This document shows, piece after piece, positions 4,696 through 31,489 of a stretch of 32,000 bases of DNA; position 1 is the stretch's first letter; each line of letters begins with the position of its first letter. This DNA is from Candidatus Saccharimonadota bacterium. Lineage in GTDB: Bacteria > Patescibacteriota > Gracilibacteria > Absconditabacterales > Absconditicoccaceae. Both the position numbers and the translations under genes were made by a program. The notes beneath the pieces were generated by a model, which worked only from the letters and a program-made list of their open reading frames with translations, searched no databases and was not told the origin of the DNA. The DNA lies in contig CP006913.1 of NCBI GenBank assembly GCA_000503875.1, positions 720,001 through 752,000 on the forward strand. Reading direction: 5' to 3'.

Positions 4696-5814
4696 ATGAG
4701 CAACGAAATCAATAAAAATGATATTTTTGATACTATGATTATTCGTTTCTTACAAGCATTTGATAAGAAAAATTTTTCTCAAAAAGAAAAAATATTATTA
4801 TTCAAAGAACTTTCTTATCTGCTAAAATGAGGTATTTCATTAAACGAATCAACAATCATTCTTCAACAATCAACTGACAATTTTGCACTCAAAGATATGG
4901 TAAAAACTATTCAGTCATATATCAAAAAGGGTATGCCACTTTCTTTTGCATTATGAAGATTGCCAGATTTTTTTAATGAAGGAGATATTGCAGTTATAAA
5001 AACAGGTGAAGCATCAGGAAAGTTAACTACCGTCTTGGCATCACTTGCTACAGAATATGAATATACTACAGATATAAAAAATAAATATGTTGGAGCTATG
5101 ATTTATCCAGTTATTTTGTTGTTAGTAGCAATCGTTGCGGTAATAAGCCTTTTTAGTTTAGTTTTACCTTCGATTTTTTCTATCGCAGACAGTTTTCAAA
5201 ATCTTGAATTACCTTGGGCTACACAAATGCTTAGAAATATTTCCAGTTTTTTGGAAAATAATCGAAAAGGAATTCTACGAACAATATGATGAGTTTGAAT
5301 CGTAGGTGGAATATTATTATCAACAGAAAAATGAAAGAAATTCTGGTTTAATTTATTGTTACAAATTCCTCTTATCGGGAAAATGACGCAATATTATTAT
5401 GTTGTTAAATTTTGTAGATATATGAAACTTATGAATGCCTCTGGAATGAGTTATATCCAAACATTTCAATTATTGAAAGATATTTTAGGTGTTCCTGCTT
5501 ACCAAGATATGTTAGACAATATCATTTCATGACTCAAAGAGGGAAAAGATATCTACTCTTCGATCAAATATGAAAGAGACCTCCTCCCAGCCGATGTCTC
5601 AGTAATGATAAAAGTTGGAGAACAGACAGCTAACTTAGAGCAATCACTTCAAAATATATTAACAATGTATGAATGAGAACTCAATGTTTCCATCAACCGT
5701 CTTTCAAAAATCATTGAGCCTATTATGTTAGTTTGAATCTGAGGAATTGTGGTAATTATCGCTTACGCTGTCTTTGGATTAATTTTGCAAATTATGGAAG
5801 GATCTGGAATATAA
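4696..5814 (+). CDS. pilC: Type IV pilus platform protein PilC / GspF family (372 aa)
   Basis: Two GspF-type repeats: LSYLLKGGISLNES...GDIAVIKTGEASGKL and MNASGMSYIQTF...ADVSVMIKVGEQTANLEQSL. The terminal EPIMLVGIGGIVVIIAYAVFGLIL is also typical. About 11 in-frame UGAs sit at typical Gly positions. Confidence 0.85.
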
Positions 5815-5830
5815 AAATAAGACAAAGAAT

Positions 5831-5980
5831 TCATAAATAGAATATTTCAAGAGAGCGCTTAAATTTTAGGTAAAAAATACGGCCAAAGGCAAAATATACA
5901 GGCCGCCGGTTTGAATTATATATTTTAGTATTTTTTATCGTATAGAAATTTAACAGTGAACGGAAATATTCTATTTATGA
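5831..5980 (+). ncRNA. Candidate structured RNA or repeat element ('element A')
   Basis: Perfect 18-bp closing stem tcataaatagaatatttc (5831-5848) / gaaatattctatttatga (5963-5980). Nested helices 5859-5866/5946-5953 and 5871-5880/5928-5937. A GC-rich apex ggcc...ggccgccgg sits in an AT-rich background. The core is homologous to 22343-22431. Confidence 0.35.
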
Positions 5981-6065
5981 GAAAATAAATTTATTGGCAG
6001 ATAATTTATTGCATCACACTATAAAATAACTATAAGCTGAAGGAATTTATTTTCTTCTTTTTTTG

Positions 6066-6587
6066 ATGAAATCAAAAAAAAACTGATATACATTATTTGA
6101 GATCATGATTGTTTTGGGGATTATTATCATCATTATGACAGTAACAATGAGATTTAGCTCTTCCCGTATAGATGATCTTCAAGTTCAAACCAGCAAAGAT
6201 GACTTCAAAAACAACTATGAACAACTGCTTTTGAGCAATATGAGTTCAAATTATCATAATGGTGAAAGATATTCTAAGTTAATTATTGGCATGCAGTCTT
6301 GATTTAATGGATTTACCTATACTCTTGAAGATGAAGTTTGATGATCGAAAATATATACAGAATTTTCCAATAATAAACAGATCGTAAATAAAATAATTAC
6401 AGAGACTGAAGAACAATCAGAAATACAAATCCAATTAACCCCTTACAAGATTGGTTGTGAAATTTCAACAGAAAACAACTCTTATTCACAGGCAGTTATC
6501 CAAACGCAAGCAAAGAACAAAACATATTGCTTTACATTAGATACAAATATATGTAAATTAGAATCTATATCTTGCTCACAACTTTAA
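6066..6587 (+). CDS. Prepilin-type pseudopilin (GspH/FimT-like minor pilin, 173 aa)
   Basis: MKSKKN-G|YTLFEIMIVLGIIIII: class III signal peptide with Glu at +5. The -1 Gly is TGA at 6084-6086. C-terminal Cys pairs (CFTLDTNICKLESISC). Confidence 0.75.
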
Positions 6588-6601
6588 TTTGCTATAAAAA
6601 C

Positions 6602-7180
6602 ATGAAAAAAAAGTGATTCACTTTGATAGAAATTATGATTGTTTTACTTGTTTTTTCTGTTGGGGTTTTGGCTGTTTTGAGACTTATTCTTCATAATATG
6701 AGTACCATGAATGATTTAGAAGCCAAAACGACAGCAACACTTCTTGCAAAAGAATGATTAGAATTTGCTTATAATACAAGAGATAGTAACCGTTTAGCAT
6801 CATTACCTCGAGATTGTATTATAAATTATCAATATAATGCAAGTCAAAATTCAGATCCTTGTAAAAATCATTTTTTAGACAATCAATGATTACGAGCACT
6901 AGAAATAATAGGAAATGATATAGAACGAAAAAACATTTCTGACACAAAACTTTTCGAAGAATGAAAACTTTTTTTAAAAAATATATGATGATTAAAATAT
7001 ACCCATCAAAATACAGAACAACCAAGTATCTTTACGAGATATATTTCTTTTACAGGAGTCAAAGATAATGATAAGATTATAAATACATGATATCTTCTCA
7101 AAATAGAATCACATGTGTTGTATCAAAAATGAACGAGAACAGGAGAAATTGTTTTGGAATGATTTATTTGAAATTATTAG
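6602..7180 (+). CDS. Prepilin-type pseudopilin (PilV/GspI-like, 192 aa)
   Basis: MKKK-G|FTLIEIMIVLLVFSVGVLAV. The -1 Gly is TGA at 6614-6616. TATLLAKEGLEFAYNTRDSN resembles PilV/GspI. Confidence 0.75.
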
Positions 7181-7181
7181 C

Positions 7182-7802
7182 ATGAAACAAAAAAAACGTT
7201 GATTTACTCTTTTAGAATTACTCATATCGATAGGTATTATCGGGATTTTATTTGTAATTTTATTTAGAGCATATATTAGTATATCTCAAGTAACTTTTCG
7301 TGTACAACAAGCAAAAAATATTCAACAAGAAATGATTCGAATTTCTCAAATATTACAAAATATAGCAGATAATCATAGTATAAATTTTGAAGCGTACAGT
7401 GGATCACAAATGAATGATATATTATTTCTTTCTGGGGAAGGGGGAAATGTGAGTATTACATCTACGGGAGTCTGTATATCTAATTCCCCAGCAATCACAT
7501 GATTTACGCAAGAACAAAAAGACAATCCGTGTCAACTCATTATCATTAACCAAGACGAAAGTATTACCACTATAACTACCCCATCAGAAAGTTTTATATC
7601 CAAACCATATTTCAGTATATTTCCAACCGAACCAAACCAACAAATAATACATAATGATCAGATTGATGATTTCCCTTTTTTAAAAATAAAACAGCCAAGT
7701 TTTCAAGTACATTTCAATATATATACCCCTTTATACGAACAATGAAATTGGATAAATATGAGTTCGCTGTTATTCCAACAATTCTTTACTCTCCAATGAT
7801 AA
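7182..7802 (+). CDS. Prepilin-type pseudopilin (PilW/GspJ-like, 206 aa)
   Basis: MKQKKR-G|FTLLELLISIGIIGILF. The -1 Gly is TGA at 7200-7202. The start lies 1 nt after the upstream stop. Confidence 0.7.
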
Positions 7803-7803
7803 A

Positions 7804-8676
7804 ATGAAAAAAAAAGGAAATATAAGTTTATTGGTTTTGTTTATCTTAGTAGCTTGTTCGTTACTAGGAATTATTGCTGTTCAATATACTAGACATATGG
7901 CAATTCAAACAAGCCAAATATACAATTATTATAAAACATATTATCTTGCAAAATGAGGAAGTGAAATCGGATTAAGTTTAATGCAACTTCGTTGAGCAGG
8001 ATATTCGTGGGAAATAAAACAAGACGATCTTTTTGTTGAACAAAATATCAGAACGGGAAATGCATTTTCTTTGAAAATACAAGGAGATAATTCATTGATT
8101 TCCGAAAATCATCCAGACATAAAAAACTGTATAAATTGATTAGTTATCCCATGAAAACAAAGCTTGATACTTCCTTTATTTACAGATACAACTGAGCTTG
8201 GTTTATCAGAACAATTCACCGAACAAAATTTTTACAAAAATAAGTCTGACTTACTCAAATTAATAACTATTACTTGACTTGATATGCCTCGTGATGTCGG
8301 AGTATGAATAATTATTTCTTCTTGAGGAATGCTTTCAGAATTGGGTATTTTCTTTACAAGCTGAAGCTTTTGAGATGATGATTTTTTTCAAAAACTTTCA
8401 AATAAAATCCAAGAAAGTTTCAATACTATAGACGATCCAATTATTAGAAATCGACAACTAGAATCAGAACTACAAAATTATCTTATCATAGCAAACAAAG
8501 AAGATCAAGAATTACGTTTTTGTCTTAGTATTCCCAACGGAACATTAGCTCTTCCAAAAACATATATTTCTAGCTTCGGATATGCAGGAACAAAAAAAAT
8601 GGGATTAGAAACAGTTTATCAACAACCAATTCCTTCTTATCTTATAGACAGTAGTTTATTTCAAGGTTGAGAATAA
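7804..8676 (+). CDS. PilX/GspK-like minor pilin (290 aa; no Glu+5)
   Basis: MKKKGNISLLVLFILVACSLLGIIAV..., then YYLAKGGSEIGLSLMQLRG as in PilX/GspK-type proteins. It is the last gene of the pilin operon. Many UGAs are read through. Confidence 0.55.
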
Positions 8677-10104: not shown

Positions 10105-11304
10105 CTAAATAATAAATTTTCCATCTTGATAAATAATTTTTTCACTTCAATCTTCCAAATACGCAGTTACTGTCCTATCTGTCGTAGAAATAATATCAAT
10201 ATGTTCTGCGCTTTGATTAAATCAAAGTTCCTTTCTTTGTTCTGCAGATAAAGAACTTACATCTCCAGTATATGTTTCTTCATAAGCTCTACCAATTGCT
10301 ACATGAGTATTTCCAAACGGTCCTCACATATTTTCATCATACAACGTTTCTCCCATCGCTTTTGTAATACGAGAATGCCTACCATCAGTTAAGCTAAATT
10401 CTCCCAATGATTTTGTACCAGAAATTTCAAAAATTTCAGTAAGGAGATCTTTACCTTCTTGCGCATCAAATTCTATCACTTCACCTTTTTCAAATTTCAA
10501 TGAAATTCCAGTAATTTTTTGTCCATATCTATATAGTGGTTGATTAAATTTCATCCAACCCGATGTTTGTCTATAATCTGGAGAAGTGAAAATTTCAAAC
10601 GAAGGAATATTTCTACCGGATCCGCCAAGCCATTTCCTATCTGATCAAATACCTACCCAAAGATCAACATCTTGACCAACCATATGCACTTTTTGGATTT
10701 TTATAGTATTAAGTTTGGTAATAATAGTTTCTATTTCTTCATTAACTTTTTTCCAATGTTCTATAGGTTTTTCTTCATCCAAATAACAAGCATTAATAAT
10801 CTGTTTTCGATATTCTTCCAACGACATTCAAACTTCTTCTGCCATTGCTGGAGTTCCATATAATCCGAGAGTCCAGGTCATTTTTCCTTCTAATTCTTTT
10901 TGTGTACGTTTTTCGATATACGGTTTACGAGAAGAAACTCTAGCAGCCATTTTTTGTGGATCCACCCCTTTAAGTTCATATTTATCAGCTTCAGCAATAA
11001 CAGAAATTACATGTGTCATTTGCTGGACTTTGCCATGCAAAAAATGTTCTGGATAAAAAGTTATTTGTTCATCTGCTGCATGTTCATAAAAATGTCTACT
11101 CACTCCATCAGGATAATATTCAAAAATAGGATGAGCTCCTGCCTCCAAAATAGATTTCTGCAAAGGTAAATAAAATGGTTTTGCACATTCTGGAATCTGA
11201 ACAAAAACCACATCTCATTGTTTTACACCTTCCCCACCTCGCAATGCAAATTTCACCAATACATCAGCATATTTTTTTAACAATTCTGGACTTGGTTGAT
11301 ACAT
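10105..11304 (-). CDS. Aminopeptidase, M29 (AmpS/PepS/aminopeptidase T) family, 399 aa
   Basis: Fragments 10324-10554, 10645-10827 and 10828-11211 join in one frame via UGA. MYQPSPELLKKYADVLVKFALRGGEGVKQGD..., ...LYDENMGGPFGNTHVAIGRAY... TAG stop at 10105-10107. Confidence 0.85.
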
Positions 11305-11763: not shown

Positions 11764-13224
11764 TTAATTAGATTCTCTTCTTTCCGCATGTCTAACGTCT
11801 TTGTTTTCTTTTTTGGTAAAAAATTCAATAGCTTCAGCCAATTCTACATGATCTTTTGCATATTCAGCAATATTAATACCTTGTTTATATGCTTCACATG
11901 ATTGTACCAAAGCCGTTGCTCCAGCCTTCGTACCTCTTGGATGAGCATGACAACCCGCTCCCATAGTCGTAATAAAGTCTACATCTCCCATCACATCAAT
12001 AAACGGTTTCAAAAGTGTTGGATTGAGTCCTCCAGAGATAATTGGGCAACATTTTTTGAGATTTCTCCAAGTATCATCTTCTTTGGTAAGATGTTGATGA
12101 TGATCTTCTTGTACTTTTTGAAGCCAATCAACATCATTTTCTGGAATGGTTCCCCATGATTGTTGAAAGATATGTCCTGGGGCGTCTAGCCCGAATATAC
12201 TATGTGCTGCAGTTACGTCTTCTTCTGGAGTTCCAGCCATTTTACCCACACCAGCTGTCCCCGTATGAATACCTGACGCCCCAGCTAGTCTAGCAAACTT
12301 AGACAACACTAAGACCGTATATCCGATAGGATTTTCTGGTCTTGTAAATGCTCCATGACCTGCTCTATGGAAATGAATAAATACATCAGGATATTTTCTT
12401 CTAAGGGTTTGAACTGCCATCCATCCTGCAGTTGTTCCATCAATCAAAAACGCATATGATCATTTTTCCATGCCTGAATTAACGATCAGTTCACATCTTT
12501 TGATCATAGTATCATAATCAGACGCTGACACGTTAAAGGAATGTACTTTTTTCTTTCCTGTTTCTTTCACTGCCTTATCCATAGCTTCTTTGATATGAGC
12601 TACCATTTTATCATAAGGACAGAAATCTTGATCTGCCTGTGGTTCATCATTTTTTACAAAATCTCCTCCACCTACTCGGAAATCATAGGCAACTTCAGCA
12701 TATTCAGCAGAAGTAAGTCCCATTTTTGGTTTTACAATAGTTCCAAGAATCGGTCTATCATATACATTCAAGTAAGCTCTCATATCATCCAAGGTATAAC
12801 TAGGTCCATCATATTGTTCAAGCATTGCAGCGGGAAATCGAACATCTAATAATTTAAACGCAGCGACTTCTTTCATTCCAAAAACATTTCCTGCAATATA
12901 GGTCAAAATATTTTGTACATTACCTCCTCTATCAAACAATCTCCATGGATAAGCAATCCAAACGAGGTTTTTTTCTAAATCAATTTTATACACCAAAGCA
13001 TTTAGCATTTTGGAATATGCTGTTTCTGTTTGTACAAGGAAATTTGTTCCTGTACTTGATTCTGCAGCTGCTTCACATGCCGCTTGCAAAATATTTAATT
13101 TTCCCCCAGGAATCAAATGGAAAGCAGCCAACATATAATCACCATTTCTCGGATCTTTAAGATCCATATTGATATATGCCGCCTGATGGGGATTTAAACT
13201 TGCAATAAGTTCTTGTAAATTCAT
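11764..13224 (-). CDS. rbcL: Ribulose-1,5-bisphosphate carboxylase large-subunit homologue, form II/III-like (486 aa)
   Basis: Fragments 11764-12447 and 12460-13224 are joined by UGA 12460-12462. Catalytic motifs are intact: GTIVKPKMGL, GGDFVKNDEPQ (carbamylated Lys plus Asp/Glu), HFHRAGHGA, GIHTGT, ISGGLNP, GAGCHAHP. Confidence 0.9.
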
Positions 13225-21634: not shown

Positions 21635-21644
21635 ATTAAAGATC

Positions 21645-22259
21645 TATCTCCCATTGGGGTAATTTTCAGTCAATACCATCTTGAACAGCTTCCAAAATAT
21701 CTTGGAGGTTTGTTTTTTTATATTCATCAAAAGAAGTCTGGTTATTTTTATGAAAATTGGTCTCAACAATCTTTGGGTTAATCAAAAAAACGCGATTCCC
21801 TAACTCCTTTCTAAGAGAGCCAACAAATCCTCTTAATCAAAATTTAGATGCTTGATATCAAGCTCCCCCTGAAAACAAGGTTTTTCCTGCTACGCTTCAA
21901 ATAAAAATAAATTGCGCCTTTTCAGAAACCTTTGGCAAAAGATAGTTCATAAAGACCATATTTGCCCACAAATTGACTTGTAGCATCTCTTTTTCCTGCT
22001 GCAAAGAAATCGATCAAAAATCACCAAAATAGCCAATTCCTGCATTAAAGATAAAAACATTTATGTCCAGTTTGCTAAGTTTTTCCGCAAGAGAGATGAT
22101 TTGCTGATCATCACGTAAATCACATGGGAAAAAAATAATTTCAGGATGCTTCGAGGGGGATCTAGACGCAGTGTAGACCTCACAATTTGCAAGCAAATTG
22201 TTCGCCACATACTCCCCAATTCCACTAGATCCCCCACTGATAAATACCTTTTTTTTCAT
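21645..22259 (-). CDS. Short-chain dehydrogenase/reductase (SDR), 204 aa
   Basis: KKVFISGGSSGIGE (TGxxxGxG-type), IFNAGIG, IGSVAGK, YQASKFGLRGF (YxxxK). Fragment 22014-22259 is extended downstream through 5 UGA codons to TAG 21645-21647. Confidence 0.8.
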
Positions 22260-22345
22260 AGAAAAAATTTTCAGATAAATAATTTAGTTAGTTAATGTGT
22301 ATAAATATATACCAAAAGTTCAATAACAAAAGAATAATATCACAA

Positions 22346-22552
22346 GTGAGCGTTTACATTTTTAGGTAAAGAAAACACATGGAGTCTAATTTGTTTGTGT
22401 TTTCTACCGTTAAGAAAATGTAACAGCTCACGAGGGGTTTTTGGTTACTTCGAACACTCAAAGAGTCTGTACCTTATTGCTTTGAGATGAGAGAAGGATA
22501 CTTGTTAGTGTACTTTTTGACCTGGTAGCAAAAAGTAACATAGAAAGTATCC
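22346..22552 (+). ncRNA. Candidate structured RNA ('element B'): three hairpins upstream of the surface-protein cluster
   Basis: H1 spans 22346-22431, with helices gtgagc/gctcac, ttacatttt/aaaatgtaa and agaaaacaca/tgtgttttct. H3 spans 22457-22486 (ctcaaag/ctttgag). H2 spans 22496-22552 (ggatactt/aagtatcc, tacttttt/aaaaagta). GC content is locally elevated. The strand was assigned only from context. Confidence 0.35.
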
Positions 22553-22694
22553 ATAAGAAAACTTCAGATAAAAAAATCTCTAATAAAATTTGCTTGTGAA
22601 TTTTACCTATTAAAAAAGTAAGAGAAAATTTGCAAAATAAAAAACTCTCATTATAATTACATAGAAGATTTTTACTTCCTATTCAAAAACAAAA

Positions 22695-23261
22695 ATGTTT
22701 AAATCAACAAAAGTCCTATTAGTTGGAGCTTTCCTAACTCTTGTAGCATTCGCTTCAATGACAAAAGCTCAAGTAAGTACCGATGTATACCTAACAATTT
22801 TGGGAGGTAATGTAACAATCGGAACAACAGGAGCATTCGATTTTGGATCATTCCCTGTTGCCTCTACAGACACTAATGTAGAAAAACAATTTACAGGTGC
22901 TGATTATTTCCGAGTAGATGATATGAAAGGTGCTGATTTAGGTTATTATACAACACTTCAAGTAACTGACTTAACTGGAGATAACGGAACTATTCCAGCT
23001 GCAAATATCTCAACAAAAGTTAGTTCGGTAACTACAACAAAAATTAATGGTACAGATAATGCAAACGTTGTTGTTAGTAATACTCTTTTAAATTACACAC
23101 CACTTAACAGTGCAATTACTTTTATCAAAAGAGATACTGCTGCAAATACTGGTAAATTGGGTAGATATGCTGCTTTTCCATTTTTGCAAGTAACTATTCC
23201 TGCATACCAATCAGTTGGTTCATATCATGCAACATTGACCTATACTATTATTGAAAACTAA
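22695..23261 (+). CDS. Small secreted WxL-like surface protein (188 aa)
   Basis: Signal peptide MFKSTKVLLVGAFLTLVAFASMTKA|Q. VDDMKGADLGYYTTLQV and the C-terminal GSYHATLTYTIIEN mirror the two WxL-type motifs with Tyr in place of Trp. It is a clear paralogue of the last ~140 aa of the giant ORF. Zero UGA codons. Confidence 0.6.
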   Translation: MFKSTKVLLVGAFLTLVAFASMTKAQVSTDVYLTILGGNVTIGTTGAFDFGSFPVASTDTNVEKQFTGADYFRVDDMKGADLGYYTTLQVTDLTGDNGTIPAANISTKVSSVTTTKINGTDNANVVVSNTLLNYTPLNSAITFIKRDTAANTGKLGRYAAFPFLQVTIPAYQSVGSYHATLTYTIIEN

Positions 23262-23289
23262 AAAATCTATTCAAAATATTTCTATAAAA

Positions 23290-23312
23290 AAGACGCATAT
23301 GCGTCTTTTTTT
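23290..23312 (+). terminator. Rho-independent terminator
   Basis: aagacgc-atat-gcgtctt followed by a T-run. Confidence 0.8.
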
Positions 23313-23316
23313 AATA

Positions 23317-23344
23317 TTGTCAACTTATTTTTATGGATTATAAC
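23317..23344 (+). promoter_or_regulatory. Putative sigma-70-type promoter for the giant gene
   Basis: TTGTCA, 16-nt spacer, TATAAC. It would place the transcription start downstream of ATG 23333, which favours the ATG at 23450 (or 23402). Confidence 0.3.
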
Positions 23345-23449
23345 ATTACGCAAGTGATTATTATTCTGAATAATTCGAAAAATTGCCATATAAAAAAGCG
23401 TATGTATAATTGTATTGTGTCCTATTTCTGGATTACTCAACCAAAAAAT

Positions 23450-26400
23450 ATGAAAAAAACAACTAACCACATTATGTATCATGCCAAAAAAGTGCTTCAC
23501 CATAGTGGACGCTTGGCAAATAAACATAAACATATACTCTTAGGATATATGCATATTTGTCTCGTTATTATAAGCTTGGGAATATATCATATGGCAACAT
23601 CTATGTATGCACAAGAAAATTGAGAAACAATTATCATGGAAGAAAATATAGCAATCAGTTCAATGTTTGAAGAGACTTCAGAAACAATTAATACAGAAGA
23701 GGTTATTGAAGAAACACCAATTACTGAAACACCAATAGAAGAAATAACATGAGAAGAAGCTGAAAATATTTCATGAAATATTGAAGAAATTACTTGAGTT
23801 AACAATGATGAAATACTTTCTTGAGAAATATTTTCTTGAACAAATACTATTCTTTCATGAGAAACGACAACAGAAATAGATTCATGAACTATCCAAGAAA
23901 ACACTTGAATAATCAACGATGAAATACTTTCTTGAGATGCATTTGAAATATCGTCTTGAAATATAATTAACAAATCAAATACAGAAGACGAACAAGAAAT
24001 ACAAACAGGCACATTACCGATTATCGAAAGTCCATTAGATATAGAAAATTTAGAAGCATGGTTTGATGCAAATCAAACAAACAGTATGATTCTTTCATGA
24101 AATTTAGTCCAAATTTGGAAAGATAAACGTTGATTTTGACACAAAGCTTTTATAAACGAAGAAAACAAATGTCCTCTCTATATATCTGGCGTTGTAAATA
24201 ATCATGCAGCTGTATTTTTCGATAATATCGATGATGGATTAGAAACAAATATTAAATTAAATTCAGAATATACTATGTTTTTGGTATACAACAAAGAAAT
24301 AACTCCATTAGGATTTGCTTCTGCATTGGGAACAAACAAAAACTGGTTTATTGGATTTGAAAATAATAATTTTTTGTTTTTTTCATCAGGAGCAATTAAT
24401 GTGCCAAATTATCGAGAAAATAATATTTTTAAAATAATAAGTGTTGCTTCTAACAATACAGGAACAGCAGTAGCTATAAATAACAAACCAGTAAGCATAG
24501 AACAAACACCGCTTATACCAACAAACAATTTAAGTTTAGGAAAAATTAATGAAGATAATTTTGCTCTATGATGATATATTGCAGAAGTAATTATATACAA
24601 CACTACCCTTTCAGAATATGAAATAACAGAAATAAACAATTATTTAACAAGAAAATATTCTCCTTTTCTATCAAAATGATTGCCTACAAATAATTCAATT
24701 AATGAGGAGTCATTAGAATCAAACACAAATTTAGAAGAAATTACAATTTCAAGTGATAACGAAACAATTCAACCAGGAGAAACAAGCGAAGAAGAAATTA
24801 TAGAACCAATAGAAGAAATAAATGAAATCCAAGAAATAAATAAAAATCAAGAAACAAATGAAAACCAAGAAACAAACGAAGAAGAAATTATAGAACCAAC
24901 GGAAGAGATAAATTCAGATTTCTATTTTTCAAAAGCATTTAAAAAAGACGAACAAGAAGAAACCATAGGACAATTGCAAAAATTTTTAACTCGGTACTGA
25001 ACATACGAAGGAGATGCAACAAGCACTTATGATGAAAAGACAATAGAAGCAGTTTTTCAGTTCCAAACAAAAGAAAATCTCCTCAAAGGACAAGAAAAAA
25101 ACAAAAAAGTTCAATGATATCTTGGTCCATCAACAAGAGCCAGAATAAATAAATTATGGAAAGAATTTATAGACAACATTTCTTCTGAAAAAACAGAAAA
25201 TATAATAAACGAAGAAATTCTTACAGAAAATTCTATTGAAGAAATAGCAGATCCAAAAGAGCATTTTAGAAAAAAATTATTAGAATTTGGATTTTTACAA
25301 GAAAAGAGAAAAGATAAAGACGTATTGATGGGGAAAAAATGATTTTGATTGAGTGAAAGTGAAGGTATAATACAAGTATCAACTGTTATTACCAATGATA
25401 GCGAAAATCCAATTGGTGAAATAACATTTCCAGAAGACACTATTATAAAAACTCAAGAGAATCAAAATTTTACTTGAGAAATCGTATTTTTTGATATAGA
25501 AGAAACAAAACAATTAAAAAATGGTATAGAGAGTATAGAAACGTTCAAGGCCTGAGCAGATGAACCAATTTTCTTAGAAGATGATAATGGAAATGCAAAA
25601 AATGCTACAATCAAAGTAAATATTCCTAGTTCAAATTCAGGAAAAAATATTATTGTACAATATTCTCATGATGGATATACGTGGAATTATTTAGATACAA
25701 TACAACCACAATCTGATGAAAATGGGCTTTTTATAGAATTTCAAACAAATCATTTTACCATATTTTCATTAGGCGTTTGGACAGGTTCTTTTGTTATCAA
25801 CAATGATGATGCAACAACCACAGGACTTAATGTAACATTAAATACTAGTATCGTTTGAGCTACGCATATGAAAGTTGGAAATACTCCAGCTGCCAGAGAC
25901 AGCGCCAGTCGAGTTACTTACAATGCCAGTTATCCACGAACCCTCACTGGCGCTGATGGAGAAAAAACCGTTTACGCAATATTTAGTGGAAATGGATCTC
26001 TAGCTTATATTCAAGATACTATTTATTTTGATACTACTTCTGTACAAGAAGCAACAGGTCTTCAACTCCATCTTGATGGATCATACAATGGAACAACATT
26101 TTACGATCTTTCATCAAATAATTATACAGCAAATAGCATAAATAATGTTTTGACTACAACTCGATGAGGATTACCTACCATGGGTTTCAATGGTTCAAAT
26201 CAATATATCAACATAGTTCAACCTATTGTTACAGCATATCCTTTTACAATTTCTGCATGGGTAAAACCAGATAGAATAACAGGAACACAATGAATCGTTT
26301 TCAAATGAAGAAGTACAGCAAATAATAGATATTTTGGAATAAATTTAAATAATGCTGCATTTGAAATTACAGCGAGAAATACTAATGCAAGAACTGCAAA

Positions 26401-29400
26401 TGCAACAATTGCTGCACAAGTAGGACAACGATATCATGTAGTAGGAATTTTCTCATCAGCAACCAGCAGAACGATTTATGTAAATGGAGTGCAATGAGGA
26501 ACAAGTACCAATAGTGTAACTTTAGATACGACTACCCAACATCGAACAGTTGGAAAATATGCAGGAACTACTACCAACTATTTTTCTGGAGCTATTGACG
26601 AAGTTCGTGTATACAATAAAGTATTAACTTCTGGAGACATCCAAAATCTCTATATTAAAAAACCAAGTTTCGTGACAAAAACCGTTTATACAACAACTCC
26701 GGTACTCGAATGAGCAGTACCAGATGCATATATGACTATAAACATGATCCTCAATGGAAATAATTACTCAGCTACTAATTACCAAAATGGAACACGAAAA
26801 ACAAATATTATCAATCCTAACGTATCTGCAGGAACATATAATGTAACATTAAATTATACCAATATTTACGGAAGAACAGGAACTATTACGTACACAAATG
26901 GTTTAACAGTAAATCCACTCCGATCATTTATTTATACCCCAAATATTCAGACGTTTAACAATGTTACATCTACACTAACTTGATATTCAAATGATTATTT
27001 TATCACAAATAATAACGGATCTCCCGATTATACGTTTACAAGTAACGGACAATTTATTTATAAACTCCAAAGTACAACTGGACTTACTTATGAAACAATC
27101 GCTGCTGTAAATTGGATAAGAAAAGGATCAATCACAGGAACAAATCTGACTTTTTATGAAAATGAAATACTCAACAACGGATCAATACAAAACACAATAA
27201 GCTTTCAATTAACATGAGATACTTTCAATACTAATGTACCAACAAACGGAAGCATAACAATGATTGGTTTACCAGTTTGACTAACACCAAATTATTCTCT
27301 TAGTGGAACACAAACCTTACTTGTAGGATTGTCATGAACAGCCACAAGCCACGCAAACGCCAACGATACAAATAACTTGGAAATCAGATTCGGATCTTGA
27401 GCATTTACTACGTACACAGAAAACGAAATTATCAACAATACAATTACAGGAATCAAAGTTGATTTTTTGGCTCCATATGTAGGGTTACCAATATATCCAA
27501 GTGATGATACTATGATTGATGCCGATACTGATGTAGCAAATGGATGTTGAGATTGAGTATGTCAAGAATACAATTTTGGAGCAATGCAATATTTATGTAC
27601 CTCTGATTTTTGATCAAAAATTCTTCTTAAATTCAATCCGTCTAGTGTACCAACTGGAGCAAAAATCACCTCAGCAAAACTTAGACTTACAAGATATTAT
27701 ATCAATACACAAACTGAAGGTATGTCATTTAGTATTAGACCAATTATCAATAACTTCTCATGGACTGAAGGAACAAGTGCAAACACAAAAGCGTTAGCAG
27801 GAGAAGTTAACTACAAAATGCGTAAACGAGGACAAGAATCTTGGTATAATGGAAATATTGGTATGGTAAATTGAATAGATTATGGAACAACAAATATTGT
27901 TAGTGTTCCATCATTTACATGAACAATAACAAACAATATAACCCAAGAATTTTCATTTAATAGTTATTGATTAACAACAGTTCAAAATTGGTTAGACAAC
28001 CCAAATACAAATCAAGGAATTATGGTATGAGATAGTAATGATTATTGGTTGTGTATACGTTCAAAAGAATATGCCACAGTTGGAGAAAGACCTATGCTTA
28101 CAGTAACGTATGCTATCGATACCGATCGTCCAGAAATATCATCAATTAGTCCATATAACAATGAAACCAATGTTGGATTATCCAATAATTTAATTATAAA
28201 TTTTAATGAAAATATTAGAAAATATACAGGATACAACATTACAATCAAAAGACTTCATGATAACAGTGTCTTTGAAACAATAGATGCAGGAAGCAATAAT
28301 GTAACAATAAACAATGACGTAGTAACCATTAACCATGGAAATATTTTTGAAAATTTCACAGGATATTATGTAGAAATTCAAAGTGGTGCATTCAGAGATG
28401 TTGCAGGAAATAGTTTTACAGGATTTGTAGGATCAACAAACTGGAAGTTTACTACGCTTAACACACAAGTAGTTCCCGTTATCACATGAAACATAGCTAC
28501 AAATATTACACAAAATAGCGCCCAAGTAACAGCAACTATCACTTCAACATGAAGTGCAACCATTACTGAAAGATGATTTTATCGAAGCACAATAAATGGA
28601 TTTAATGATTGAGTAGGAACTAAAGTAAGTGAAACAGGAAATCGGGATACTCTTTGAGATTTTTCTCTAGTATTGACATGACTTCCATCAGGAACACAAA
28701 TTTATTTCAAATGATTTGCAACTAACAGTTATGGATCAAAATTTACCTCACAATCAGGATTCTTAACGCTTCCAGCAAAACCTATTTTGAAACCAGCTAC
28801 CTATATTGATAATGATGGATTTAGAATAAATCGAGAAACGACAACTGGAGCAACAAGTTACAACCTGCGAGTTTCAACTGGCGCTTCTTTTACAACTACC
28901 CTGCCTGAATATAGTGGAAAAGTTATTATAGATACAAAAGAAAATTTAACAGGACTCCAAAAAGAAACACGATATTATTACAAACTGCAAGCAGTAAATA
29001 ATGCTTGAGAAAGTCAGATTTCTGATATTCAATCCACACAAACAACTTGGTTACCATGAGCTCGATCTTGGCTAAAATTCGAAGAGCCATCAGGAAGTAC
29101 TACTTTTGATAGTTCATTAAACAATAACTATGGAATCTTACTTTGAGGAGTAATTATGTATCAAACATGAGTTGATGGAAAAGCATTTCAATTCGACTGA
29201 GTCAATGATGAAGTAAGTATTGTAGACTTTGATCACGGCCCAGATTTGACTATTTCTTTCCGATTCAAAACCAATAGTACCGGAAATAATATGCATCTCT
29301 ATAGTCATGGAGACAGTGCTGCAGTAAATTCTATCAATGTACTATTAAACAATAGTGATCAAACACTCAAGACATTTATCAATGGACAACAAACAATATT

Positions 29401-30373
29401 AAATCTGAATGGAACACTTTATCCAACACTCATCAACAACGAACGACATCTCTATACATTAACAATCGATGATAACTGAGAAGTCGCTGGCAAAAAGAAA
29501 GCAACTGTATATATAGACGGAACAGCAAGAATCAGTAACTCCTCTATCGATGCAGGAACATATAATCCGACGAACAATATCACCCTTGCCAGAAGAAGTG
29601 CAACACAAACAAATACATTTTATAAAGGACTTTTAGATGATGTCCGTATTTACAACAAAACTTTGACCTCTGGCCAGGTATATAATTTATACGCTGCCTT
29701 CGTCGATACAATTCCTCCAACAGCATATATAGAATACTCACCATGATCTGGAACATGCTACAATGGAGATGTTATTGCAACATTGACTGGATATTCAGAA
29801 AACATCACCATCACCAATAATGGATGATCAAATATGTATATATTTACAGAAAACAATACATTTACTTTTACCTTTAGAGATGATGGTTTTAATACAGGAG
29901 AGGTTATTGCAACAGTAGATTGGATTTGTAAAGAACCAGTAAATATTTGATGACCAGCAATGGTAACATGAGCTATAGAAGCTACTAGTGAATATCAAAT
30001 AGTTGAGCAAGAGTTTTCTGATTACTTTTGGATAAATGATCCAATTGGAGCAAATAATTGATATTATACAACCGTATCTATATCAGATCTTTCATGATCA
30101 TATGAAAGCATCAATAAAAACAATGTTTGATTAAAAGCAACTGAAATAACAACCCTTTCATGAACAGTAAATCCTCGTGTTGAAATAAATAGCAATCTTT
30201 TAAATTATCAACCAATTGGAGAACCAATCACTTATATCAAAAGAGATGTTGCAAGCAATTATTGAATAAAAGGAAAATATGGAAATAAACCATGGTTAAA
30301 ATTTGATATTCCTGCTTATGTAACTATTGACGATTATCATGCAACATTTACATATACTCTTTATGAAAATTAG
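23450..30373 (+). CDS. Giant secreted multidomain surface protein (2307 aa)
   Basis: I walked frame 2 codon by codon from 23333 to TAG 30371-30373; it contains only TGA interruptions and no TAA/TAG. Start chosen at MKKTTNH...ILLGYMHICLVIISLGIYHMATSMYA|QE. Three LamG-type domains end in ...G.I.EV.IYN..L, ..IDEVRVYNKVLTSGDI and ..LDDVRIYNKTLTSGQV. A peptidoglycan-binding-like repeat is present (LQKFLTRYGTYEGDATSTYDEKTIEAVFQFQ). Also present are a DNRLRE-like domain (ILLKFNPSSVPTGAKITSAKLRL...ERPMLTVTY), Ig/FN3-like modules and a C-terminal WxL-like domain. Confidence 0.8.
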
Positions 30374-30439
30374 TTTGCATCTGACAAAGATTTTTCTATA
30401 TACTAAGCTAATCAAAGTTTTAACTTTTACAAACAAAAG

Positions 30440-31489
30440 ATGAAAAAATTTTTGGCATTATTATTTTTTTTAGGAGCACTTTTTATAAGTAATACATATG
30501 CCGCTACTATTGGTGATGTTGCTTTAAGATTTTGTAATAATTCTGGATCATTAGAAAAAACAATATCGCTTACAACAAGTGGACAAGAACAAAAAGAAAT
30601 TTGTATGATGCTTATCAATTGATCTTATGAACCAACAGATGTTAGTATAAATTTTGTAGATGGAACAATAACAAACGATGCTGACCAAAAAAAAGCATGT
30701 AAAAACGAATGAGAAAATCAGAATTTTTGACAATATATGACTTTAGAAAATAAAACCATAAGTGTACCAGCCAGAGGAAACACTACATTTACAGGAGTTT
30801 TGGAACTTCCAGAAGAAGCAGCAGGAGAAATACATGGATGCGTAACTTATTTCATAAATAATGAAAAAAATCAGAAAGAAATGTTTACTATTATGGTTCG
30901 TAGGGCAAATTTTATAGATATTTTTGCAAAAGGAATAGTAACTATTTGATTGGAATTTGTCGATATTGAATCACCAACAAAAAGTATTTCAAAAAATCCA
31001 AAACTCGTAAGCTTCTTTGATACCAAAGAAAATAAATTATATATTCAATCTATGTTAAGAAACAAAGGAACTGCTGAGCAATGAATTACCATAAAAGGGG
31101 AAATTAAAAATCGATTTGGCTACAAAAAAACATTTTTTGAAGAGAAAAGGACTATTTTTTCAAAGCAAACATCAAACATAAATAATGTTATAGATGATTT
31201 ACCATTTTATAAAGGACCTTTCACTATAACATATAGCGTAGAACATAGTGCAAATGTATCAGAATGACTAGAAACAGATACAGAAGAAAAAACAGGAATA
31301 TTGGCAGAAACAACAAGCATTTTGATAATAACTCCAGCTACTTATATTAGTGTACTAGTATTTTTACTAATAATTGCTGGGATATCTTTCTTTATTATCA
31401 GAAGAAAGCATAAAAAAACAAAAACAGCTCACACAACAAACCATAAAGGAACAAAAAAACATCATAAAATAGTCGCAGAAACTTCCTAA
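30440..31489 (+). CDS. Membrane-anchored DUF916/WxL-interacting-protein-like surface protein (349 aa)
   Basis: Signal peptide MKKFLALLFFLGALFISNTYA|A, two beta-rich modules (e.g. ISVPARGNTTFTGVLELPEEAAGEIHGCVTYF), a C-terminal TM (ILIITPATYISVLVFLLIIAGISFFII) and a basic tail RRKHKKTK. Fragments 30440-30622, 30737-30949 and 31301-31489 are joined via UGA. Confidence 0.55.

Follow-up and report, generated by a model that had tools for sequence, protein, structure and literature searches.

A structured hairpin between pilC and pilin genes of an Absconditabacteria genome is probably a copy of a new ERIC/MITE-like palindromic intergenic repeat family

Introduction

The features of the ERIC repeat were reportedly set out by Hulton in 1991 and by Wilson & Sharp in 2006. 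The general features of bacterial MITE, ERIC and Correia repeats are described in PMC3184786, together with the ways in which Correia/MITE repeats affect their neighbours, through promoters or RNase III sites. According to PMC3733652, REPs are GC-rich units of 20-40 nt with a GTAG/CGTC tag. Full-text searches of the literature returned nothing on repeats of such kind in Absconditabacteria, whose genomes are streamlined (about 1 Mb) and in which retained non-coding repeats are unexpected.

Here we analyze a structured element at positions 5831-5980 of a window of Absconditabacteria DNA, by which we mean the whole stretch of 32,000 nucleotides. Like the repeats above, the family to which we assign it is multi-copy and dispersed, intergenic beside unrelated genes, and palindromic with a stable stem-loop. 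We conclude that the element is probably one copy of a new ERIC/MITE-like palindromic intergenic repeat family, and not a regulator of pilus or surface genes. The family is apparently the first interspersed palindromic repeat family described in Absconditabacteria.

Results

The window and its genes

The window has a GC content of 31%, and its open reading frames are intact only when TGA is read as sense. This holds across its whole length, as in genetic code 25 (SR1/Absconditabacteria): the T2SSF/PilC gene (4696-5814) carries 10 in-frame TGA codons, and table-11 ORF lists fragment nearly every gene. The PilC homologues of the window gene carry the label Absconditabacteria/SR1. The stop of pilC lies 17 nt before the element, hereafter copy A. 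A further 85 nt lead to the first of the pilin genes, of which the three covered by the motif scan have N-terminal methylation (pilin) motifs; a fourth gene, at 7804-8676, neighbours them. Copy A is sense to the downstream pilin genes (6066-8676, + strand), and the pilC-pilin spacer measures 251 nt, hairpin included.

Just 5' of the first pilin start codon, 6039-6068 holds a separate small hairpin (GAAGGAA..TTCTTC / AGGGAA..TTCCTT) and, after it, 7 T in a row. This hairpin also occurs at L004 11470-11500 and L005 11285-11316 (the prefix L marks the loci compared), and is thus kept in relatives with and without the repeat. Elsewhere, the window contains a RuBisCO large-subunit gene (11764-13224, - strand) and a 39-nt tandem repeat (1345-1458) within the 3' end of an S1-domain gene.

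Parts and fold of copy A

The sequence-only reading had described copy A as a perfect 18-bp stem enclosing nested helices and a GC-rich apex, and all three parts are present. The 5' arm of the outer stem (5831-5848, TCATAAATAGAATATTTC) pairs at 18 of 18 positions with 5963-5980, its exact reverse complement; the minimum free energy (MFE) fold has nested helices within it; and the ggcc...ggccgccgg apex occurs at 5881-5909. Folded as RNA, the + strand of 5825-5985 reaches -44.5 kcal/mol, against -21.8 +/- 3.5 for 200 shuffles, none of which folds as well (z -6.5), and against -34.5 kcal/mol for the other strand. Folded as DNA, it has a z-score of -6.0.

The outer arm 5831-5848 is a diverged homologue of the left terminal inverted repeat (TIR) of the family, whose consensus is AACAATAAACAAATATATAAC; only 11 of 21 positions match, and the partner arm at 5963-5980, the homologue of the right TIR, has diverged along with it and remains a perfect complement. 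By homology to the family alignment, P1 would pair 5851-5856 (GAGAGC, where the family has GUGARC) with 5956-5961 (GTGAAC), with tandem G.A mismatches and weakened by an A/A mismatch. In the MFE fold, P2 joins 5859-5867 (TTAAATTTT) to 5945-5953 (GAAATTTAA), and P3 joins 5869-5880 (GGTAAAAAATAC) to 5928-5939 (GTATTTTTTATC). Between them lies an asymmetric internal loop, seen in the fold and the family alignment, with a single A at 5868 on its 5' side and GTATA (family GUUAA) at 5940-5944 on its 3' side. The apex (5881-5927) is a copy-specific insert of 47 nt forming GC-rich mini-hairpins, in place of the short variable loop plus UUUGUU of the family. It is unique to this copy: among the loci examined, its GC-rich 11-mers had no match in other family copies, and its words gave only scattered chance matches of AT-rich words.

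Copy A scores 30-42 bits with the covariance model described below, against about 110 for typical copies, and yet its helices are all perfect despite this strong divergence in sequence. We regard 5831-5980, with good confidence, as a diverged type A copy of a lineage-restricted intergenic palindromic repeat family.

Copy B and its homology to copy A

A second element in the window, copy B (22346-22541), had been noticed through its likeness to copy A. The homology holds: with a single gap, 28 of 33 positions agree between 5848-5880 and 22343-22376, and the 3' cores align too. The compensatory changes reported between the two copies are also real (A:T to C:G in P2; A:T to G:C and T:A to A:T in P3), but the pair numbers originally attached to them (A62:T50, C57:G420) cannot be mapped to coordinates.

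Copy B lies between a divergent short-chain dehydrogenase gene (21636-22259, - strand) and a weak WxL-like gene (22695-23261), which is followed by a gene for a 2346-aa protein and then by a weak WxLIP-like gene. The 2346-aa product (23333-30373, + strand), a secreted or giant protein, adjoins both. Hairpin 1 of copy B (22346-22431) scores 112.8 bits and agrees in layout with the type B consensus fold, with a fully Watson-Crick P1 (GUGAGC/GCUCAC), then P2, the internal loop, P3 and the loop; the fold of 22335-22440 has -32.5 kcal/mol (z -5.35). Upstream, the stretch 22322-22345 (AATAACAAAAGAATAATATCACAA) appears by eye to be a degenerate relative of the type A left TIR, and has no right partner. 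Downstream, the type B tail (22432-22541) consists of a linker (GAGGGGTTTTTG) and hairpin 2 (GTTACTTTTTG..CAAAAAGTAAC), the latter split by a lineage-specific insert of ~63 nt (about 22451-22513) present only in the window. Covariance model and sequence scans found no family members in the window other than copies A and B and a mini-hairpin at 22497-22551.

A multi-copy family with two subtypes

An initial pattern, built from five copies and scanned over one genome per species, matched 37 loci. About 29 were in five related MAGs (9, 7, 7, 4 and 2 copies), one was on an 8-kb contig binned as Oscillospiraceae, and seven were apparent chance matches in unrelated taxa; the source assembly of the window is absent from the matches, presumably because it is not a species representative. 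With the strict pattern, the fuller related MAGs have 7-9 copies each. A covariance model scan, proposed when the element was first noticed, was run on the related loci with a model (R1) built from 31 copies, and revealed a multi-copy family. Across 417 kb of sequence, drawn from six related genomes of Absconditabacteria, the model recovered 34 full copies and several partial ones; the 32-kb window has 2. The family is confined to a small clade of Absconditabacteria (SR1, genetic code 25), and its unit has 100-150 nt and about 30-35% GC. The copy on the contig labelled as an Oscillospiraceae MAG (L028; CAZCTO010000033.1, 8.3 kb) is a bona fide type A copy with the flanking heptamers described below, and the contig is probably a mis-binned Absconditabacteria fragment.

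Two subtypes can be distinguished. In type A, terminal inverted repeats (AACAATAAACAAATATATAAC / GTTATATATTGTTTATTGTT) surround P1, P2, the internal loop, P3 and the apex; the ends are complementary over 16-23 bp, and there is no ORF inside, copy A included. Type A units are often trailed by a degenerate half-copy "tail" (GCGAACGTTGATGTTTTATTTATC...). This second module, GCGAACGTTGATGTTTTATTTATC...CTACAAAAC, was observed just 3' of the right TIR in L032, L036, L037, L041, L044 and L046, as well as at L004 11263-11345, where it runs on into a second 3' end of the element and resembles a P3-deleted half-copy, and at L005 11190-11250, where it stands alone in the pilC-pilin spacer. A deletion variant without the P3 5' arm and apex (GTGAACGCTTACATTTGCCTGTGTTTTCTACCGTTAAG...) was seen in L052 (880-990), L071 and L091, at one locus in three metagenome samples.

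Type B has a fully Watson-Crick P1 (GUGAGC/GCUCAC), no right TIR, and a linker plus second hairpin. Its 45-nt tail, GAGGGGTTTTTGGTTACTTTTTGACCyGGnAGCAAAAAGTAACA, is identical in 8 copies from 4 genomes save two loop positions (e.g. L017 2934-2975), and hairpin 1 varies in these same copies. Stand-alone type B tails were not found in the loci examined. The two variable sites are 3 nt apart (CCY GGN). We considered a micro-ORF in the tail (TTG GTT ACT TTT TGA CCY GGN AGC AAA AAG TAA), with 10 codons, GAGGGG ahead, and both variable sites at fourfold third positions; we set it aside, since the window and L012 both carry inserts that break it.

The fold is maintained by compensating changes

The common layout of the unit is an outer stem (the TIRs), P1, P2, a conserved 1x5 asymmetric internal loop, P3 and a variable apex. 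The claim that this fold is maintained, made from copies A and B, is borne out by compensating changes in the helices across the 31-copy alignment. Over its 26 consensus pairs, 99.5% of cells are paired, against 90.3% in shuffles (reached by 0 of 500), and there are 78 double-change cells against 22.9, statistics that overstate independence given that the copies are interrelated and pattern-ascertained. Slid alignment controls gave 44-57% paired. Compensatory double changes affect 9 of the 26 pairs in these 31 family members, and P2 exists in at least six fully paired versions across the family. In P1 (alignment pairs 6:92, 7:91, 10:88 and 11:87), pair 10:88 covaries between GC and AU; type A has a GUGAAC/GUGAAC duplex with tandem G.A pairs, where type B uses Watson-Crick pairs instead. 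In all type A copies the two TIR arms complement each other, and substitutions in them are compensated, for example in L018, L028 and L044.

The two strands are not equivalent. The + strand fold is the more stable in 30 of 31 copies (mean -25.1 vs -19.8 kcal/mol), and G.T outnumbers A.C at variable pairs by 15 to 3. The fold z-scores of the family units tested range from -5.4 to -6.5. Compensating changes thus run through all helices, the TIRs included, and the fold favours one of the two strands.

Some of the sequence conservation is inherent to the search. The selection pattern fixes TTTAGG, CGTTAAGAAA and AACAG in the ascertained copies, and the internal loop reads GTTAA in all of them by construction; two copies that were not so selected (L024 7917-7999 and L018 4418-4470) have GTTAA followed by A, not G. 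Template-switch repair of quasi-palindromes could also mimic some of the compensation without selection, although it would tend to erase an asymmetric loop, and the conserved asymmetric loop persists.

Copies stand beside unrelated genes

With ORFs called under code 25, 34 of 35 copies are intergenic. It had been anticipated that a selfish MITE/REP-like repeat would be scattered randomly, including inside genes: the copies are indeed dispersed beside unrelated genes, but they keep to the spacers. Tandem heptamer arrays (TTAGGAC, TTAGAAT, TCTACCA) flank many of them, e.g. at L028 7380-7420, and by eye also around L023, L026, L040 and L018; in L005 an array (11129-11180) follows the pilC stop. 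Because the period is 7, three units of such an array are enough to bring a TAG stop into each reading frame. Canonical terminators adjoin several copies.

From the window alone, the element could be taken for a cis-regulatory RNA, a riboswitch or leader that lies in the 5' UTRs of operons for pili and surface proteins. Both window copies are upstream of, and sense to, such genes, namely the pilin genes and the WxL-like/giant-protein cluster (22695-31489), the covarying fold is strong, and of 10 type B copies, 8 precede the next gene in sense orientation. However, the genes downstream of type B copies are functionally unrelated (uvrB, frr, a YraN-like nuclease, a Mur ligase and the WxL-like gene). 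Type A copies adjoin dus and pilin genes; between co-directional genes, 6 lie in sense and at least 4 in antisense orientation, and the others are in divergent or convergent spacers.

The hairpin is also absent from the pilC-pilin spacer of three relatives that keep the synteny there. The corresponding spacer has 193 nt in L005, 72 nt in L007 and 33 nt in L009, whose PilC proteins are 79%, 69% and 61% identical to that of the window. In L004, the closest relative (PilC 85% identical), a 444-nt spacer holds a canonical copy and a partial second 3' end.

At copy B, the best sigma70-like site for the WxL-like gene (TTTGCA-17-TATAAT, 22629-22657) is downstream of the element, and copy B is therefore probably outside the 5' UTR of this surface-protein gene. 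The unit itself is built as a rod-like hairpin; its apex is variable, and it lacks a multi-helix ligand pocket. As the sequence-only reading had supposed, it does not belong to a known RNA family: neither locus has a match in Rfam at gathering thresholds, and a search of Rfam 15 at E<=10 returned for both only noise (snoRNA/miRNA models), the c-di-GMP classes also being without match. The copies are thus neither sense 5' UTRs of related genes nor matched by a curated RNA family, and we give the cis-regulatory reading very little probability.

The proposed link to cell-surface appendage operons does not survive these comparisons, given unrelated housekeeping neighbours, copies in both orientations, and relatives without the hairpin in their pilC-pilin spacer. 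Far from being always pilus or surface genes, the neighbours share no functional theme, so the surface-appendage association in the window is a coincidence of two copies.

Gain, loss and inversion at orthologous loci

By comparing the flanks of all copies, we recognised ~10 orthologous loci. Many copies are kept at such loci across species whose flanks are only 75-85% identical, and others come and go. The pilC-pilin loci have further copies on the downstream side of dus (L004) and on its upstream side (L007). At the dus-upstream site, L007, L024 and L038 all have the element, only a 3' remnant is left in L004, and in the window the site is empty. Twice, a locus that holds type A in one species holds type B in another (L044/L017 and L014/L030). 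Apical-loop subfamilies are common to non-orthologous copies and sometimes differ between orthologous ones, which points to conversion or re-insertion.

At three of the ~10 loci, species differ in the orientation of the element (L018/L019, L023/L026, and L007 and L024 vs L038). The clearest comparison is that of L023 5796-5963 with L026 1048-1213: the flanks are collinear at ~75% identity, and the 169-bp unit aligns only when reversed, at 89%. The inversion breakpoints are the outer TIR ends. The family has thus been gained, lost, truncated, flipped and subtype-swapped at orthologous loci.

Inversions exactly at the ends of TIRs of 18-21 bp that bracket the unit, together with two window copies upstream of surface-structure genes, recall an inverton, in which a recombinase flips a segment between inverted repeats and so phase-varies adjacent pilin or surface genes. 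We give this reading almost no credence. The two of the three flipped loci whose immediately adjacent genes were identified are at housekeeping genes (SpoU-dus, and a pseudouridine synthase/radical SAM pair); the interior of the unit is itself palindromic, and consensus scans for a promoter within it were not above shuffles. Pfam searches found no recombinase encoded in the window or in the orthologous neighbourhoods, and three metagenome samples of one locus (L104, L106 and L108) all have a single orientation.

Searches for an origin and for other element classes

No target-site duplication was found at ~10 canonical copies, nor in the comparison of the filled and empty dus sites, a test that loses power because the flanks are AT-rich and the copies old. 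When metagenome contigs were scanned with a TIR 20-mer, 71 loci matched, 62 of them chance AT-rich matches and 9 ordinary TIR-plus-hairpin copies; none of the contigs had an autonomous element with a shared TIR. Clustering of 337 ORFs near copies gave no recurrent transposase-like family. Viral contigs had no matches for the family core or the type B tail, and on this basis a phage origin was rejected.

Several other classes were considered and set aside. A promoter carried by the type B tail (TTGACC, with a 19-nt spacer to a weak TAnAAA) fell with the promoter scans mentioned above. An integron attC was rejected upon inspection: the polarity of the R-box-like heptamers (GTTACAT...ATGTAAC) is opposite to that of RYYYAAC...GTTRRRY, and a cassette structure is lacking. 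For the internal loop, K-turn and loop-E motifs were rejected, the sequences being off consensus and P1 being GUGAAC/GUGAAC with tandem G.A. The AT-rich stem base and lack of a U-tract do not fit an intrinsic terminator. Finally, there is no reverse transcriptase nearby, no A-specific variation and no ribozyme core, as a retron, a diversity-generating retroelement or a self-cleaving ribozyme would have.

Discussion

A mobile hairpin or a host module

In our preferred reading, the family consists of non-autonomous hairpin elements that are mobile, or were until recently, much like ERIC, Correia or REP-like repeats, and that would be moved or flipped by an enzyme acting in trans. The covarying TIRs and the strand asymmetry suggest that the entity recognised and preserved would be the single-stranded top-strand fold, rather than the duplex TIR sequence; covarying TIRs are not what a duplex-binding DDE transposase would require. 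The pilC-pilin spacer would then carry copy A as a passenger. Should this spacer be transcribed, copy A would yield a near-perfect RNA duplex of roughly 60 bp between the pilC and pilin genes, which might be cut by RNase III or alter mRNA stability. An effect of copy A on pilC-pilin processing or stability is plausible in this way, and would be a side effect, not dedicated pilus control.

The missing target-site duplication, autonomous partner and viral copies speak against a mobile element, and the orthologous retention and the invariant type B tail fit a function at the level of the host at least as well as selfish spread. The units could instead be modules maintained by the host: a structured small RNA encoded in many copies, above all in type B, or a strand-specific site for a hairpin-binding protein. 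Purifying selection, and not selfish spread, would then hold them at fixed intergenic sites. Copies retained at ~10 orthologous loci across species, a type B tail invariant but for two loop positions next to a variable hairpin 1, the conserved asymmetric internal loop, the strand-asymmetric fold, and the helices of copy A, which stay perfect under heavy sequence drift, all argue for such modules. We nevertheless find them distinctly improbable: no conserved promoter or terminator flanks the units, the flips at orthologous loci indicate that either orientation is tolerated, and presence is variable, with truncated copies.

A reading that draws on both is a hairpin-dependent system new for CPR bacteria, in which the conserved asymmetric loop and the invariant type B tail of a strand-specific structured nucleic acid would be read by a putative protein, either a recombinase or transposase that recognises hairpins and makes no target duplication, or an RNA-binding factor. 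Units would be moved, flipped or converted at fixed intergenic sites and would serve the host as RNA-processing or regulatory modules switchable by orientation. We offer it as speculative and unlikely.

Treating the element as a probable mobile repeat removes a false lead, in that there would be no pilus or surface riboswitch at copy A. The compensation in all helices including the TIRs, the strand asymmetry, the flips between species and the invariant tail of one subtype are unusual, and in combination they make the family well suited to the question of whether selection on a single-stranded fold keeps such repeats in place. As a practical matter, the repeat marks its clade and is a likely cause of assembly breaks or mis-binning, as with the copy on the contig binned as Oscillospiraceae.

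Comparison with known repeat systems

Type A units have, as MITEs do, TIRs around a transposase-free core, without target-site duplication; type B copies, copy B included, have no right TIR. Because neither a duplication nor a cognate IS was found, we file the family only under the broad class of palindromic repeats.

Within this class, ERIC (about 127 bp) is similar in that its units are imperfect palindromes of ~100-150 nt, multi-copy, strictly intergenic and in either orientation (PMC3184786). Its presence likewise varies between related species, it forms a long hairpin if transcribed, and some copies have internal insertions. In contrast, there is no sequence similarity, and the host here is a CPR bacterium of about 31% GC. 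ERIC-type units have been reported with TA flanks and target duplications (PMC3184786), neither of which was seen in the Absconditabacteria family, and the latter differs further in its second subtype with an invariant extra hairpin and in its covarying TIRs. Correia (CREE/NEMIS, of Neisseria), RUP, Nezha and Chunjie elements are also small and dispersed in intergenic regions, with TIRs, no ORF and stem-loop potential. However, the 26-bp TIRs of Correia elements are conserved, and these elements also have a TA duplication and an IHF site, whereas the Absconditabacteria TIRs drift with compensation, with no duplication and no cognate IS found.

The pneumococcal BOX/SPRITE repeats have an unrelated sequence and another module logic. 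They are similarly intergenic, structured and modular, with a full hairpin plus reduced or partial modules (PMC3184786), to which the type A "tail" and hairpin 2 of type B are comparable. REPs differ from the units described here, which are longer (100-150 nt), AT-rich and devoid of a GTAG/CGTC tag. The REP/BIME system and its RAYT enzymes (IS200/IS605-like HUH) nonetheless offer a likeness in mechanism, since recognition of a single-stranded hairpin would account for three observations made here: the compensatory evolution, the strand asymmetry and the missing target duplications.
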